From an uncultured Anaerolineaceae bacterium (GTDB lineage: Bacteria; Chloroflexota; Anaerolineae; Anaerolineales; Villigracilaceae), in assembly GCA_964371065.1 (NCBI GenBank), contig CAYJLS010000001.1:4383-68382 (forward strand): a DNA stretch of 64,000 nucleotides. Reading direction: 5' to 3'. Position numbers and translations under genes: made by a program. The notes below the pieces were generated by a model. That model saw only the letters and a program-made list of their open reading frames with translations, searched no databases and was not told the origin of the DNA. Positions 45,309-52,829 of the stretch are shown here, piece after piece. Position 1 is the first letter of the stretch, and the number at the start of each line of letters is the position of its first letter.

Positions 45309-46274
45309 TTACTTTTCTTCCTTCAGCGCTTCCTGTTTGGCTTTGCGCCTGCGGTTGGCGTTGCGGACCGCGCGGACGATGAGCCAGATGGGCAGGCCGA
45401 AGACGAGGGCGATGGTGAGCAGTTTCGGCAGGAAGTTCACCACGAAGACGATCAGGAAGTCTACGAAATCCTGCCAGAAGTAGATCAGGTTCTGGATGGC
45501 GTCGCGCAGGGTGCCTTCGGGTTTCCAGCCTGCGATCTCAAGCGGCTTGACAGTTTCTTCGGCAACCAGGTGAACCGAGATGGCCGAGAGCGCGACAGAT
45601 TCTTCGAAGTATTTCATCTGGCCTTTGATGGACTCGATCTGTCCGCGGATGGAGGTCAGTTGGTTGAAGACGTTCAACACATCCTCGGTCTTCTCGGCCT
45701 TCCGCATGATCTCGGTCAACTGGGCTTCGGCGGCTTCGAGGTTCTTGAGTTGCGACTCGAGGTCCACGTATTCGCTGGTGACATCCTGTCCGCTCTGCGT
45801 CTCAGCCTGGACTTCGACCGCGTCGGCCTTGATGGTTTTGAGCGCCTGATCCAGTTTTTCGGCGGGGACGCGGATGACCACGCTCGCCTCGGGGACGGGC
45901 AGGCCGCTGGGCGCGTAGGACTGGTACAGGTTGGACGAGACCACGAACCCGCCCAGTTCCGCGGCCAGGTTGGTGATGGCGGTCATGGCGGCTTCGGGAT
46001 CCTTGACCACGATGGACAGGTCGGCGTTCTTGATGACGAGGCGTTCGCGTCCCGAGGCGTCCACGTTCCCACCGCCGGCCTTGTTGGATTCGGGCGCGCG
46101 AGCCGCTTCTGTCGGCATGGCGGCGGGTTGCTGTGGGGAAACCCCGTCGCCGCCGCCCATTCCATACGGAGGTTGTTCAACAAAGGACGGTTCAGACGCG
46201 GCTTGAAGCGCCCTCTGGCCGCAGGCGGCCAGCAAAAACGCGGCGATCAACATGACAAACAGGGTTCGTTTCAT
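45309..46274 (-). CDS. DUF4349-type lipoprotein with C-terminal TM
   Basis: Lipobox LAAC; RLVIKNADLSI, QDVTSEYVDLES, IESIKGQMKY. Confidence 0.85.
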   Translation of the reverse strand: MKRTLFVMLIAAFLLAACGQRALQAASEPSFVEQPPYGMGGGDGVSPQQPAAMPTEAARAPESNKAGGGNVDASGRERLVIKNADLSIVVKDPEAAMTAITNLAAELGGFVVSSNLYQSYAPSGLPVPEASVVIRVPAEKLDQALKTIKADAVEVQAETQSGQDVTSEYVDLESQLKNLEAAEAQLTEIMRKAEKTEDVLNVFNQLTSIRGQIESIKGQMKYFEESVALSAISVHLVAEETVKPLEIAGWKPEGTLRDAIQNLIYFWQDFVDFLIVFVVNFLPKLLTIALVFGLPIWLIVRAVRNANRRRKAKQEALKEEK

Positions 46275-48416: not shown

Positions 48417-48670
48417 GGGTTAATTATAACCCCCTCCCTACCCTCCCCCATTTCAAAGTGCGGAAATGGGGGAGGGAGAAGCGCGCTATGAACATGAGAT
48501 GTTGTTCTCTTCCCAACCTCTCATTCCCCTTCCCCCAAATCCGTTCTTCGATTTGGGGGAAGGACGGGATGGGGGTCAAGGGTTCGAGTGAAACATCACC
48601 TCAACCCCCTTCATGCTTACCATGTGACACAAACCAGGTTTCTTGCATCGCGAGAAACCTGGTTTATAAC

Positions 48671-49663
48671 TCAACGACTTGCCAGCGTACTGCCCATCAG
48701 GATGCCGTTGACCCAGTAGAAGCCTGTATCACTCGAAGGCAGAAGATCGTAGGTTACGAGGCCGCCGTACGGCAGGGTTTCTACGCGGATCACAAGTGCG
48801 CCGTCCAGAAGATTGCCCACTTTGAGATCGCCCAGCCTGCGCCCATCCGCGGTGGGATGACCGGGCGAGGCCCACAGTTCCCGTCCATCATCCAGGACGA
48901 TGTGAACGACCCGATGACTGGCAGGCGCAACCATGTTTCCCACCCTCAAAATCACTGCGGAGACGCGCTCGCCCGCCGCGTTCATCGTCCAGACCGAGTC
49001 GCCGGGGCGTAGGTTTTCCACAGCCTCGGGTCCGCGCGGCGTGTCAATCGAAATGCTCGCGGCGAGGCAGATCGGGCAGGAAGGGAAACTCGGATCACGT
49101 TGCTCGACCTTGATCCTGCCATCCCCGTCAATGGCGCCGGAGATCATGAAACCGGACTGGCCTTCCGTTCCCGTCTGCAATTGGAACTTGTATTTTTCGC
49201 CAACCAGTTCGAATTGGATGGCGGCCAGTTTCTTGTGCTCGCGATAGATGAGCAGTTTTTGTTCGTCTGTGAAGGCCGTCAAGTCGCTGAGACCGTTGTG
49301 GTTCAGGATCGCATTGAACTCCTCCGCGTTGGCTTGTATTTCGGGGAAGCGTTCCTGCGCCAGAACATTTTCATCTTCGCGGGCGATTGGATAATAATCG
49401 GGATCGCAAAAGAAGAAATCCGGGTACTCTTCCAGCAGGCGGTACTTCAACTCGGTGGGCGAGAGTCCCGATGGCAGGGTTGGGATGGCGGTTGCCGGCG
49501 CGGGCGTGGGGACAGGCGCCTCCGTCCCGCCTCCAATGCCGGGGATGACTGTGGCCTCGGGCATGACCGTCATGACTTTCGCGGTGGAAGTCCCTGAATT
49601 CGACGGACTGCACGCGGCCAGGAGGAATGTAATGGTGAGGGTTAGGGTAAATAGTTTTTTCAT
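48671..49663 (-). CDS. Lipoprotein with C-terminal Hint (intein-like) domain
   Basis: Lipobox LAAC; CLAASISIDTPRG..VENLRPGD block A; ASPGHP block B; TYDLLP..FYWVNGILMGST end. Confidence 0.85.
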   Translation of the reverse strand: MKKLFTLTLTITFLLAACSPSNSGTSTAKVMTVMPEATVIPGIGGGTEAPVPTPAPATAIPTLPSGLSPTELKYRLLEEYPDFFFCDPDYYPIAREDENVLAQERFPEIQANAEEFNAILNHNGLSDLTAFTDEQKLLIYREHKKLAAIQFELVGEKYKFQLQTGTEGQSGFMISGAIDGDGRIKVEQRDPSFPSCPICLAASISIDTPRGPEAVENLRPGDSVWTMNAAGERVSAVILRVGNMVAPASHRVVHIVLDDGRELWASPGHPTADGRRLGDLKVGNLLDGALVIRVETLPYGGLVTYDLLPSSDTGFYWVNGILMGSTLASR

Positions 49664-49719
49664 GGGGATATGCTCCAAACAGTGGACGATTTGATATTGG
49701 ATTTGTTCCACATTATCCT

Positions 49720-50184
49720 TCACAGAATTTTCTGAAACACCACCTCGTATCTCTTCATCTTCTCTCCCTCATACACAAACTTCGCCGAGAAAAATTTCCC
49801 CTCGCGGATCCACGGCATGAAGACGTGGTCGCTTTCCCACAGTGGCAGGGACTCGACCTCGTCGTCGGGAATCCACTTCAGATATCCCTCGTTCGATTCG
49901 ATCAACTCGCCCTCGAATTCGTCCGCGGTGAAGGTGAACACATACCAATCGTCGCCTTTGAAATTGGGGAACATCAGCAGGCCGACCAGTTTCGAATTCT
50001 GAATCGTCAATCCCGATTCCTCACGCACTTCGCGGACGATGCACTCCTCGGGCGTTTCGCCTGATTCAAACTTGCCGCCCAGCCCGTTCCATTTCCCCGC
50101 GTGGATGTCGTTCTCCTTTTTGACGCGGTGAAGCATGAGCGTGTGGTCGTCGCGGTGGAGGTAGCAGAGGGTAGCGAGAATCAT
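49720..50184 (-). CDS. Nudix hydrolase, 8-oxo-dGTP diphosphatase-like
   Basis: GGKFESGETPEECIVREVREESG Nudix box; LWESD. Confidence 0.92.
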   Translation of the reverse strand: MILATLCYLHRDDHTLMLHRVKKENDIHAGKWNGLGGKFESGETPEECIVREVREESGLTIQNSKLVGLLMFPNFKGDDWYVFTFTADEFEGELIESNEGYLKWIPDDEVESLPLWESDHVFMPWIREGKFFSAKFVYEGEKMKRYEVVFQKIL

Positions 50185-52220: not shown

Positions 52221-52829
52221 TTATTTGCTGAATGTTCCCATCAACTCACCCTGCGCGAGGATGTGACCTTGAATTGCGGCGAGAACATCTTTTTTATACG
52301 CGCTGGAAGAAAGCGAAAGAGTCGTGTCGAGCGCGTAGAGTTTAAAGAAGTAGCGGTGCGTGCCCGAGGGCGGACAGGGGCCGTCGTAGCCGATCTGGCC
52401 GCCGCTGTTTTTTCCCTGCCGGGCGCTGTTGACCAACTCGGCGTCCCGCGGGGTATTCTCCGGCCAGCTATGCGCGGAGGTTGGGATGTTGTAGAGCACC
52501 CAATGATCCCACGTGCCCGCGGGCGCGTCGGGATCGTCCACGATGAGCGCGAGGGATTTTGTGCCAGCAGGCGGTTCGTCCCACGCCAGCGGTGGGGAAA
52601 CGTTTTCGCCTTTGCAGGAATACTTGACGGGAATGGGTTCTCCGTAGGAAAACGCGGTACTGGTCAGGTTCATGGAGGCCTCCAAATCATCTGGGAATGA
52701 GGTTTCTTCGGTGATGGTGGAAAAGACTTCACCTTTCACCGGACCGAGCAGGTATAAGACAAGGCAGGCAATCAAAACGAAACTAAGTATGGAAAGACTG
52801 AAGATAATAAGAAGGGGTGGTTTTTTCAT
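52221..52829 (-). CDS. YbhB/YbcL (PEBP/Raf kinase inhibitor-like) protein
   Basis: DDPDAP, WDHWVLYNIP, YDGPCPPSGTHRYFFKLYALD. Confidence 0.93.
   Translation of the reverse strand: MKKPPLLIIFSLSILSFVLIACLVLYLLGPVKGEVFSTITEETSFPDDLEASMNLTSTAFSYGEPIPVKYSCKGENVSPPLAWDEPPAGTKSLALIVDDPDAPAGTWDHWVLYNIPTSAHSWPENTPRDAELVNSARQGKNSGGQIGYDGPCPPSGTHRYFFKLYALDTTLSLSSSAYKKDVLAAIQGHILAQGELMGTFSK

Follow-up and report, generated by a model that had tools for sequence, protein, structure and literature searches.

What does a Hint domain do at the C-terminal end of a lipoprotein, when no more than five residues follow it and the residues needed for splicing are missing? This question is raised by a gene of an uncultured Anaerolineaceae bacterium, located on the minus strand at positions 48671 to 49663 of the 64,000-nucleotide stretch of contig CAYJLS010000001.1 that was analysed here (the window). 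Hint domains are known from inteins, in which they drive splicing, from the processing of Hedgehog proteins, and from toxins and variable proteins of bacteria, in which they bring about cleavage. We propose that the product of this gene undergoes traceless N-terminal autocleavage at the bond between Ile198 and Cys199, such that the globular domain that precedes the Hint domain (the N-domain) would stay lipid-anchored and the Hint domain would be shed; judging from comparative sequence evidence, we put the probability of this reading at roughly 60%. The evidence that carries it comes primarily from homologues that lack the Hint domain and end exactly at the residue preceding the predicted nucleophile.

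Architecture of the protein

The original prediction, made from the letters of the window, described a lipoprotein with the lipobox LAAC, a Thr/Pro linker and a globular domain, followed by an SCPI junction with the codon of the first Hint cysteine (Cys1) at 49067-49069, an SPGHP motif and the end GILMGSTLASR, which lacks His-Asn. All these elements are found on the minus strand exactly as described, and the features of the gene are the following:

48671..49663, minus strand: whole open reading frame, lipoprotein precursor with a C-terminal Hint domain (330 aa; ATG at 49663, TGA stop at 48671-48673)
49610..49663, minus strand: signal peptide and lipobox L-A-A-C, residues 1-18 (Cys18 codon at 49610-49612)
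49481..49609, minus strand: low-complexity Pro/Thr/Ala/Gly/Ser linker, residues 19-61 (30 of 43 residues are P, T, A, G or S)
49070..49480, minus strand: N-domain, residues 62-198, 137 aa (C86 codon at 49406-49408; terminal C196-P197-I198 at 49070-49078)
49067..49069, minus strand: Cys199, position 1 of the Hint domain and predicted nucleophile (predicted scissile bond Ile198-Cys199)
48689..49069, minus strand: Hint domain, residues 199-325, 127 aa (matches to Pfam Hint_2, by Foldseek, and to the CatC and gp41-1 sequences)
48857..48868, minus strand: block B, S266-P-G-H269 (SPGHP being S266-P270), aligned to SEEH of gp41-1
48746..48748, minus strand: Asp306 of block F, within TYDLL, aligned to block F of CatC and gp41-1
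48686..48694, minus strand: G324-S325-T326, in the positions of the intein His-Asn-(+1), aligned to THN|S of gp41-1
48674..48688, minus strand: C-terminal tail of five residues, T326-L-A-S-R

The junction reads SCPI|CLAASISIDTPRG, that is, S-C196-P-I198 | C199-LAASISIDTPRG, and the protein terminates in NGILMGSTLASR. The whole protein contains four cysteines only, namely C18, C86, C196 and C199. The signal peptide with its lipobox, MKKLFTLTLTITFLLAAC, fits the pattern [LVI][ASTVI][GAS]C, and Cys18 is predicted to become the lipidated N-terminus of the mature protein; this cysteine is invariant in an alignment of 32 family sequences (alignment A1), a lipobox-like motif is found in 243 of 300 family members, and the match to Pfam LPAM_1 is weak (E = 0.071). 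The linker differs in length between homologues and has pLDDT values below 50 in the full-length structural model.

Identity of the Hint domain

The fold of the C-terminal domain and its membership in the Hint superfamily are established by sequence and structure comparisons that go well beyond chance similarity. The Pfam family Hint_2 (PF13403) matches residues 198-269 (E = 6.5e-7; 30.3 bits against a gathering cut-off of 28.4), and PF13403 is the precomputed assignment of every listed homologue as well. In a phmmer search against PDB sequences, the consensus intein CatC was matched over residues 254-323, and the family profile search matched the gp41-1 intein over the whole Hint domain. The full-length AlphaFold2 model has a mean pLDDT of 71, with low values in the signal peptide and the linker. 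When this model was compared with the PDB by Foldseek, 52 matches were obtained at E <= 0.001, and all 50 of those listed are inteins, bacterial intein-like (BIL) domains or Hedgehog HhC domains; the best matches have E of ~1e-7, and the best structural match of the Hint domain among those listed is the BIL domain 2lwy of Clostridium thermocellum (TM 0.80, rmsd 1.9 A). The features of the superfamily are all in place, including the horseshoe-like beta-fold, the nucleophile at position 1 and the SxxH motif of block B. Thus, the Hint assignment of the original prediction is borne out both by profile classification above the Pfam cut-off and by structural similarity to BIL domains, inteins and HhC.

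The T/SxxH motif of block B promotes the N-S acyl shift in inteins. In the profile alignment with gp41-1, Cys199 falls on intein residue 1, S266-P-G-H269 on block B (SEEH), T-Y-D306-L-L on block F, and M-G324-S325 | T326 on T-H-N | S. Hence, as far as can be judged from the aligned residues, the machinery of the first step, the N-S acyl shift, is present in the form of Cys1, the block B His and the block F Asp. As for the later steps, splicing and Asn-type cleavage at the C-terminus by way of a succinimide are both excluded, since Ser stands in the place of the Asn and the chain continues for just five more residues. The original prediction had likewise held that the domain is unable to splice, and the replacement of His-Asn by Gly-Ser alongside retention of the residues of the first step is in line with that view. 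More generally, the features that define an intein are missing: there is no terminal Asn preceded by His, no insertion in a host protein and no functional C-extein.

Many Hint-less homologues stop at the predicted cut site

With respect to the site of cleavage, comparative backing for the N-terminal junction, CPI|C, at which the original prediction had placed it, is provided by Hint-less homologues that end exactly in CPx. The comparative set consisted of the 150 best representatives of N-domain clusters; residues that precede Cys1 are counted backward from it, so that Ile198, Pro197 and Cys196 correspond to positions -1, -2 and -3. A full Hint domain is present in 58 of these representatives with the standard CPxC junction and in six more with an unusual junction, and in 22 the Hint domain is interrupted by the end of the contig. 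Another 22 have no Hint domain and a C-terminus that is exactly Cys-Pro-x, x being the residue before Cys1. The other ends comprise Cys-Pro (one representative), CPIC plus two to five residues (three) and ...FNT, one residue before Cys(-3) (three); the remainder are fragments with scattered ends. The DNA was examined for six of the CPx-ending homologues, two of which stop with TAA (L059 and L064) and four with TGA (L060, L058, L063 and L007). These loci, and two at which both cysteines are kept, are as follows:

L059 (P0182): CPL-TAA, unrelated sequence after the stop
L064 (P0131): CPV-TAA, unrelated sequence after the stop
L060 (P0255): CPT-TGA, convergent MFS gene 10 nt away
L058 (P0174): CPK-TGA, junk and IS66 genes after the stop
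L063, 3001-3720 (P0124): CPN-TGA, in-frame 'PAAHTQIDAPQCG*', then junk or unrelated sequence
L007, 1227-2249, TGA at 1845-1847 (P0127): CPI-TGA, with the Hint reading frame still intact behind it (134 codons, every motif present)
L065, 465-1091: CPICTTH-TAA, Hint-less with both cysteines kept, a genuine end
L066, 417-983: CPICGARCR-TGA, Hint-less with both cysteines kept, a genuine end, with a PEBP (PF01161) gene overlapping its 3' end

The short in-frame stretch 'PAAHTQIDAPQCG*' at L063 resembles block A of the Hint domain (compare LAAHTQIDTPHG in L011) and is, by this resemblance, a decayed block A remnant, so that the locus would represent a snapshot of Hint loss at an intermediate stage. 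The TGA at L007 probably arose very recently, as a nonsense mutation by which the cleaved product is written into the gene itself. The three representatives that stop at ...FNT (P0168, P0211 and P0268) have Hint-bearing relatives that read INT/FNT-CPICL at this point; their ends may reflect a stop, possibly TGA, at the Cys(-3) codon, or else coinciding contig ends.

When the N-domains were arranged in a neighbour-joining tree, tips that lack the Hint domain fell at scattered places among those that have it, and Fitch parsimony yields a minimum of 15 state changes and a Hint-bearing root, both of which are approximate. Given the scattered tips and the Hint-bearing root, the Hint domain therefore was probably lost repeatedly, with the same C-terminus left each time. 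Moreover, Ile stands at position -1 in 73 of the 84 representatives that carry a Hint domain and in only 3 of the 21 that do not (p = 4e-10 by Fisher's test, without phylogenetic correction), and the junction therefore appears to be constrained only when the Hint domain is present; the simplest reading is that Ile(-1) is retained only as long as it is needed for the Hint reaction. Taken in its simplest form, the pattern as a whole would mean that evolution has repeatedly 'hard-coded' the N-domain product by conversion of the Cys1 codon (TGY) to a stop, with L007 a fresh case, L063 an intermediate one and the others old.

Conservation and distribution of the family

When 5.8 billion proteins were searched, 4571 matches were obtained at E <= 0.001. 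Among the best 120 of these 4571, nearly all are 320-375 aa long (one is a fragment of 276 aa), identity ranges from 58 to 89% (plus one fragment that is 100% identical), and the query is covered to 81-100%, mostly to at least 95%. These 120 sequences come from metagenomes and from metagenome-assembled genomes of Anaerolineales and other Chloroflexota, and where a database name is given, it is 'Hint domain-containing protein' or 'hypothetical protein'. The exact sequence of the window is present in four sediment-metagenome runs.

Alignment A1 shows, in addition to Cys18, invariance of Cys86 (within FFFCDPD), of C196-P-I-C199-L, and of S266, H269, D306 and G324-S325-T326; beyond this catalytic set, several residues on the surface of the Hint domain, namely W225, R233, R261, D273, Y316 and W317, are also invariant. 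Among 300 full-length members, Pro(-2) is found in all and Ile(-1) in 288, and among 65 diverse full-length cluster representatives, the SxxH motif of block B and the Asp of block F are each found in 62. The Hint domain measures 125-131 aa across the family. Its S-T-L ending is shared by 254 of 279 members; His-Asn is absent, Ser occupies the Asn position family-wide, the residue aligned to the penultimate His varies (G, A, K, R, S, D, Q or T), and the tail past the Asn equivalent is mostly 3-10 aa long and variable beyond T-L.

A scan of GTDB, with one genome per species, yielded 50 loci, all titled Chloroflexota or Anaerolineae save for three bins with other labels. The junction motif was matched in 47 of the 50, with Cys1 always encoded by TGT or TGC. 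One GTDB locus, L018, bears the label Anaerolinea thermophila and comes from a metagenome-assembled genome. The three bins, labelled Bacteroidota (L029), Syntrophothermus (L045) and Candidatus Methanoperedens (L051), carry typical family genes of the Anaerolineae type with 56-60% identity, and their contigs are probably mis-binned. Identity in the Hint domain follows that in the N-domain, being ~67-69% where the N-domain is 60-80% identical, so that purifying selection acts on the Hint domain about as strongly as on its cargo. Altogether, the sequence comparisons describe a family that is large, conserved, vertically inherited within Anaerolineae/Chloroflexota and apparently single-copy.

A model of processing and the points that weigh against it

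From the observed architecture, Hint fold, catalytic-residue conservation and ends of the Hint-less homologues, we infer cleavage, the fate of the thioester and redox control along the following lines. The precursor would be exported via Sec and, as the lipobox suggests, lipidated at Cys18. With the help of Ser266/His269 and Asp306, the Hint domain would then carry out an N-S acyl shift of the Ile198-Cys199 bond, a step suggested by conservation and by homology to inteins, BIL domains and HhC. The resulting thioester would be resolved by water or a thiol, hydrolysis or thiolysis being the default, and the 132-residue Hint fragment, starting CLAASISIDTPR, would be shed. The N-domain product, ending in ...Cys196-Pro197-Ile198-COOH, would be kept on the membrane by the lipid at its N-terminus; in this respect the model departs from the original prediction, in which the N-domain was to be released, as the part set free would be the Hint domain. 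Neither splicing nor C-terminal cleavage would occur in the proposed pathway. Furthermore, a disulfide between Cys196 and Cys199 could keep the precursor uncleaved under oxidising conditions and permit cleavage under reducing ones.

Several considerations weigh against this model. For every member of the family, the case for cleavage is a comparative one; the Pfam Hint_2 score is just 2 bits over the cut-off, with only positions 1-81 of the 147 in the Hint_2 model aligned, and the neighbour-joining tree was built on a domain of 137 residues, without support values. Stand-alone homologues of the first domain of any fusion protein would end near the junction, and the coincidence of their ends with the cut site weighs less if the Hint-less state is ancestral. 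Moreover, a stop codon would be equivalent to simple hydrolysis, so that retention of the Hint domain over thousands of sequences suggests an added role, for which an adduct, timing, folding or redox control are the candidates. With regard to ancestry, the exactness of the ends to a single residue, the remnant at L063 and the tree argue for derived Hint loss, which is favoured by these sequence comparisons, not proven.

The upstream cysteine and the spacing of redox traps

The original prediction also suggested that the cysteine three residues upstream of Cys1 might help the Hint domain by resolving the thioester. The distribution of this residue points elsewhere. Cys196 and Pro197 are invariant in the Hint-less homologues that have no Cys1, and since Cys196 is kept in such proteins, it belongs to the N-domain and is not a Hint accessory. 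Conversely, the few Hint-bearing representatives that lack Cys(-3) carry His, Tyr, Ala or Asp in its place; two of these, P0143 (HPIC) and P0183 (YPIC), indicate that Cys(-3) therefore is not strictly required alongside the Hint domain.

The spacing of the two cysteines recalls the redox traps of inteins. In an engineered Ssp DnaE intein, a disulfide between Cys-3 and Cys1 prevents cleavage at the N-terminus for as long as the bond is not reduced, and the MoaA intein of Pyrococcus abyssi natively has such a disulfide (PMC3922620). The spacing is identical in C-P-x-C, where a Cys likewise stands three residues before Cys1. Unlike in the inteins, Cys(-3) is here a conserved feature of the cargo domain that persists without the Hint domain, the protein is extracytoplasmic, and the disulfide is hypothesised. 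By analogy, redox-gated processing in an exported protein of mostly anaerobic bacteria would be a reasonable extension of the intein case. The Hint-less clusters that end in CPIC plus a tail give a hint that the dithiol may matter independently of the Hint domain.

Alternative readings

Instead of reacting with water, the thioester at Cys199 could be captured by a specific nucleophile in the manner of Hedgehog, so that the N-domain would carry an adduct at its C-terminus in addition to the lipid at its N-terminus; a membrane lipid, a cell-wall amine, another protein, or a C-terminal thiolactone formed by Cys196 could be envisaged. The layout, with an N-terminal lipid and a C-terminal Hint domain, parallels that of Hedgehog (PMC7765530), the Hint domain is strongly kept although a stop codon would yield the hydrolysis product, and the invariance of W225, R233, R261, D273, Y316 and W317 extends beyond the catalytic residues. 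However, the Hint domain is minimal, with a tail so short that no region for adduct recognition can be discerned, relatives that end in a plain carboxyl group occur in many lineages, and no conserved neighbour gene suggests a partner. We therefore regard such capture as possible though unlikely, and the ligation to a nucleophile that the original prediction entertained finds nothing that points to it: there is no extension resembling a sterol-recognition region, and the plain carboxyl end is viable in Hint-less relatives. About as unlikely is the specific version in which the thioester would serve to couple the lipid-anchored N-domain, by its C-terminus, to a membrane lipid, an amine of the cell envelope or another protein, or to close a Cys196 thiolactone, perhaps gated by a Cys196-Cys199 disulfide that senses the extracellular redox state, as a bacterial counterpart of the dual modification of Hedgehog. 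If, on the other hand, the Hint domain did not cleave at all, the precursor would remain intact, C196-P-I-C199 would be a redox or metal site of the CxxC type, and the Hint fold would serve as a scaffold or binding module. The near-invariance of CPxC, with Cys(-3) present in 80 of 84 Hint-bearing representatives and Pro(-2) without exception among the full-length members, is compatible with such a site, as are the three Hint-less clusters that retain CPIC with a tail of two to five residues (for example, L065 and L066). Yet the 22 clusters that end at CPx have no second Cys, which makes the CxxC pair dispensable for the function of the N-domain, the conservation of the block B His and the block F Asp would have no evident reason if there were no acyl shift, and the constraint on Ile(-1) is linked to the presence of the Hint domain; a non-cleaving Hint domain accordingly appears doubtful to us.

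The TGA codon at L007, which stands at the Cys1 position and is followed in frame by the intact Hint domain, raises the further issue of whether TGA could encode selenocysteine there (CPxU), with a redox or selenoester site as the outcome. This locus is the only one of its kind found, though: the relatives nearest to it (75-81% identity) all have Cys at this position and are full-length, at ~346 aa, and the truncated form is a single sequence on a single contig. A scan of 241 million metagenome records for CPx-TGA-LAxxTxIxTP gave two chance matches only, the Cys1 codon is TGT or TGC in all motif matches among the GTDB loci, two of the six stops checked are TAA, and the other TGA loci have no Hint domain downstream. 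In addition, the hairpin after the TGA of L007 is no more stable than shuffled sequence (z = 0.11), and no published link between selenoproteins and Hint domains was found in the literature searched. Selenocysteine at Cys1 was accordingly rejected on the grounds of the sole locus, the Cys-form relatives and the negative metagenome scan, and a selenoprotein family is very improbable. Least credible is a true intein or a BIL-type element for splicing or C-terminal cleavage, which the Hint fold and the invariant Thr326 at +1 might bring to mind; the Ser that replaces the terminal Asn throughout the family, the variable position of the penultimate His, a 'C-extein' of 3-10 poorly conserved residues beyond S-T-L, and the lack of insertion in a host protein speak against it almost entirely.

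Relationship to known Hint systems

Autocleavage at the N-terminal junction, the reading that we prefer, has precedents among known Hint proteins. By Pfam assignment and motif pattern, the closest class is that of B-type BIL domains and Hint_2, with which the present domain shares the Hint fold, Cys1, the N-terminal and block B/F motifs without His-Asn, and occurrence in secreted bacterial proteins. B-type BIL domains, which lack the C-terminal motif, cleave at their N-terminus, and BIL domains are described as residing in proteins that are not conserved, within regions that are hypervariable (PMC7765530). While autocleavage at the N-terminus has been demonstrated for the B-type domains, the support for it here is comparative, from Hint-less ends at position -1. 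In contrast to BIL domains, the domain studied here forms the C-terminal end of a conserved, vertically inherited lipoprotein family, and both its ending (x-S-T-L) and its junction (C-P-I|C) are fixed.

The likeness to Hedgehog lies in the N-terminal cargo, the non-splicing C-terminal Hint domain, the predicted acyl shift from cargo to Cys1, and the lipidated, exported cargo, and Foldseek matches the HhC structures 1at0 and 6tyy with E of ~5e-6 to 9e-6. The differences are that a sterol-recognition region is missing after the Hint domain, that this domain has no second catalytic Cys, that the cargo is unrelated to HhN, that the host is a bacterium (Chloroflexota), and that any adduct is hypothetical here. 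Accordingly, the 'Hedgehog-like' label of the original prediction is apt for the architecture and the predicted chemistry of the first step but not for family membership or adduct formation.

Hint domains of the PT-HINT family (PF07591) serve for autoproteolytic release in secreted bacterial polymorphic toxins, in which they stand N-terminal to the released toxin. The common element is a Hint domain for autoproteolytic release in a secreted bacterial protein; in contrast to the toxins, nothing lies downstream of the Hint domain here, no PT-HINT match to the protein is obtained even at E <= 10, and the gene has no toxin or immunity-gene context in the window. What is new is that the lipoprotein family is conserved, that the fold of its cargo is an orphan, that the C-P-I|C junction and the x-S-T-L ending are fixed, and that Hint losses at the Cys1 codon form an evolutionary series.

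The N-domain

As for the cargo, AlphaFold2 modelling of the N-domain alone from an alignment of 109 sequences gave a pLDDT of 96.5 and a pTM of 0.89; the predicted fold consists of four main helices followed by a four-stranded antiparallel sheet, with an extra short helical turn in the full-length model. The N-domain has no Pfam match at E <= 10 and no NCBIfam family, sequence and profile searches against the PDB returned no match, and Foldseek found nothing significant in the PDB (best E 0.07, TM about 0.23) or in BFVD (best E 0.065). On the basis of the model, the N-domain may be considered an orphan cargo fold, confidently predicted.

A phmmer search with the N-domain alone over 1.84 billion representatives detected 392 clusters (50% identity), 241 of them at E <= 1e-10. 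Nearly invariant across diverse members are C86, D87, P88, D89, P92, Y140, K144, G176, C196 and P197. Tandem N-domains are found both in Hint-bearing proteins (P0142, P0149, P0167 and P0190) and in Hint-less ones (P0174, P0188, P0200, P0205, P0208, P0213, P0214 and P0242; L058:8001-9002), and the C-terminal Cys-Pro is kept in the second repeat only. The first repeat of these proteins often retains the equivalent of C86 without that of C196, which bears on any pairing of C86 with C196.

Gene boundaries and genomic context

The mechanical list of open reading frames extends this one upstream to a GTG at 49723. The ATG at 49663 was chosen instead because homologues in alignment A1 begin at the same MKK and because a GGAG lies 9 nt upstream. 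Two features flank the coding sequence:

49673..49676, minus strand: GGAG, Shine-Dalgarno-like, 9 nt 5' of the ATG (a candidate read from the sequence)
48631..48665, minus strand: inverted repeat with perfectly matching 13-bp arms around a 9-nt loop, 5 nt past the stop, resembling a terminator hairpin, with no T-run

The consensus terminator scan did not call the inverted repeat at 48631-48665, which by its sequence and position is likely a hairpin at the end of the transcript.

The neighbours of the gene in the window, all on the same strand, are PEBP, EamA transporter, esterase and NUDIX genes upstream and CoaBC, metallophosphoesterase and DUF4349 lipoprotein genes downstream. The DUF4349 protein, encoded three genes downstream (45309-46274, minus strand; Pfam E = 1e-50), has a lipobox-like signal peptide (...FLLAAC) and is a second predicted lipoprotein nearby. 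The PEBP gene lies at 52221-52829; a gene of the same family (PF01161) is the one that overlaps the family gene at L066. The gene is single-copy within the window.

Elsewhere the surroundings differ. The genes rpsB-tsf-pyrH-frr-uppS-cdsA-glpX precede the family gene in L001:1-7002, L002:1-6978 and L005:1-7002 and do not flank it in the window. Immediately upstream of the family gene in L001, and also on the P0134 contig, there is a small DUF6496 gene, which is not a flanking gene in the window, and a protein of ~415 aa with a faint CreD match adjoins the gene in L001 and L005, again not in the window. A conserved operon partner was considered and rejected, as clustering of the open reading frames over 54 loci revealed no neighbour shared by most of them and the neighbours in the window are unrelated. 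The gene looks monocistronic.

Implications

Anaerolineae are abundant in sediments, soils and digesters. The present family can be viewed as a natural experiment on autoprocessing, in which a stop exactly at the Cys1 codon in many lineages would locate the cleavage site. It also displays, naturally and family-wide, the Cys-3/Cys1 arrangement that serves as a redox switch in inteins, here in a protein located outside the cytoplasm of bacteria that are mostly anaerobic. The main question that it raises is what the retained Hint domain adds if a stop codon gives the same chain. If cleavage or ligation indeed takes place, the Hint domain would provide a small tag, ~127 aa in length, that cleaves itself in the extracellular space, and the family would open a way to study an envelope protein that is so far uncharacterised, in a phylum that has received little attention.

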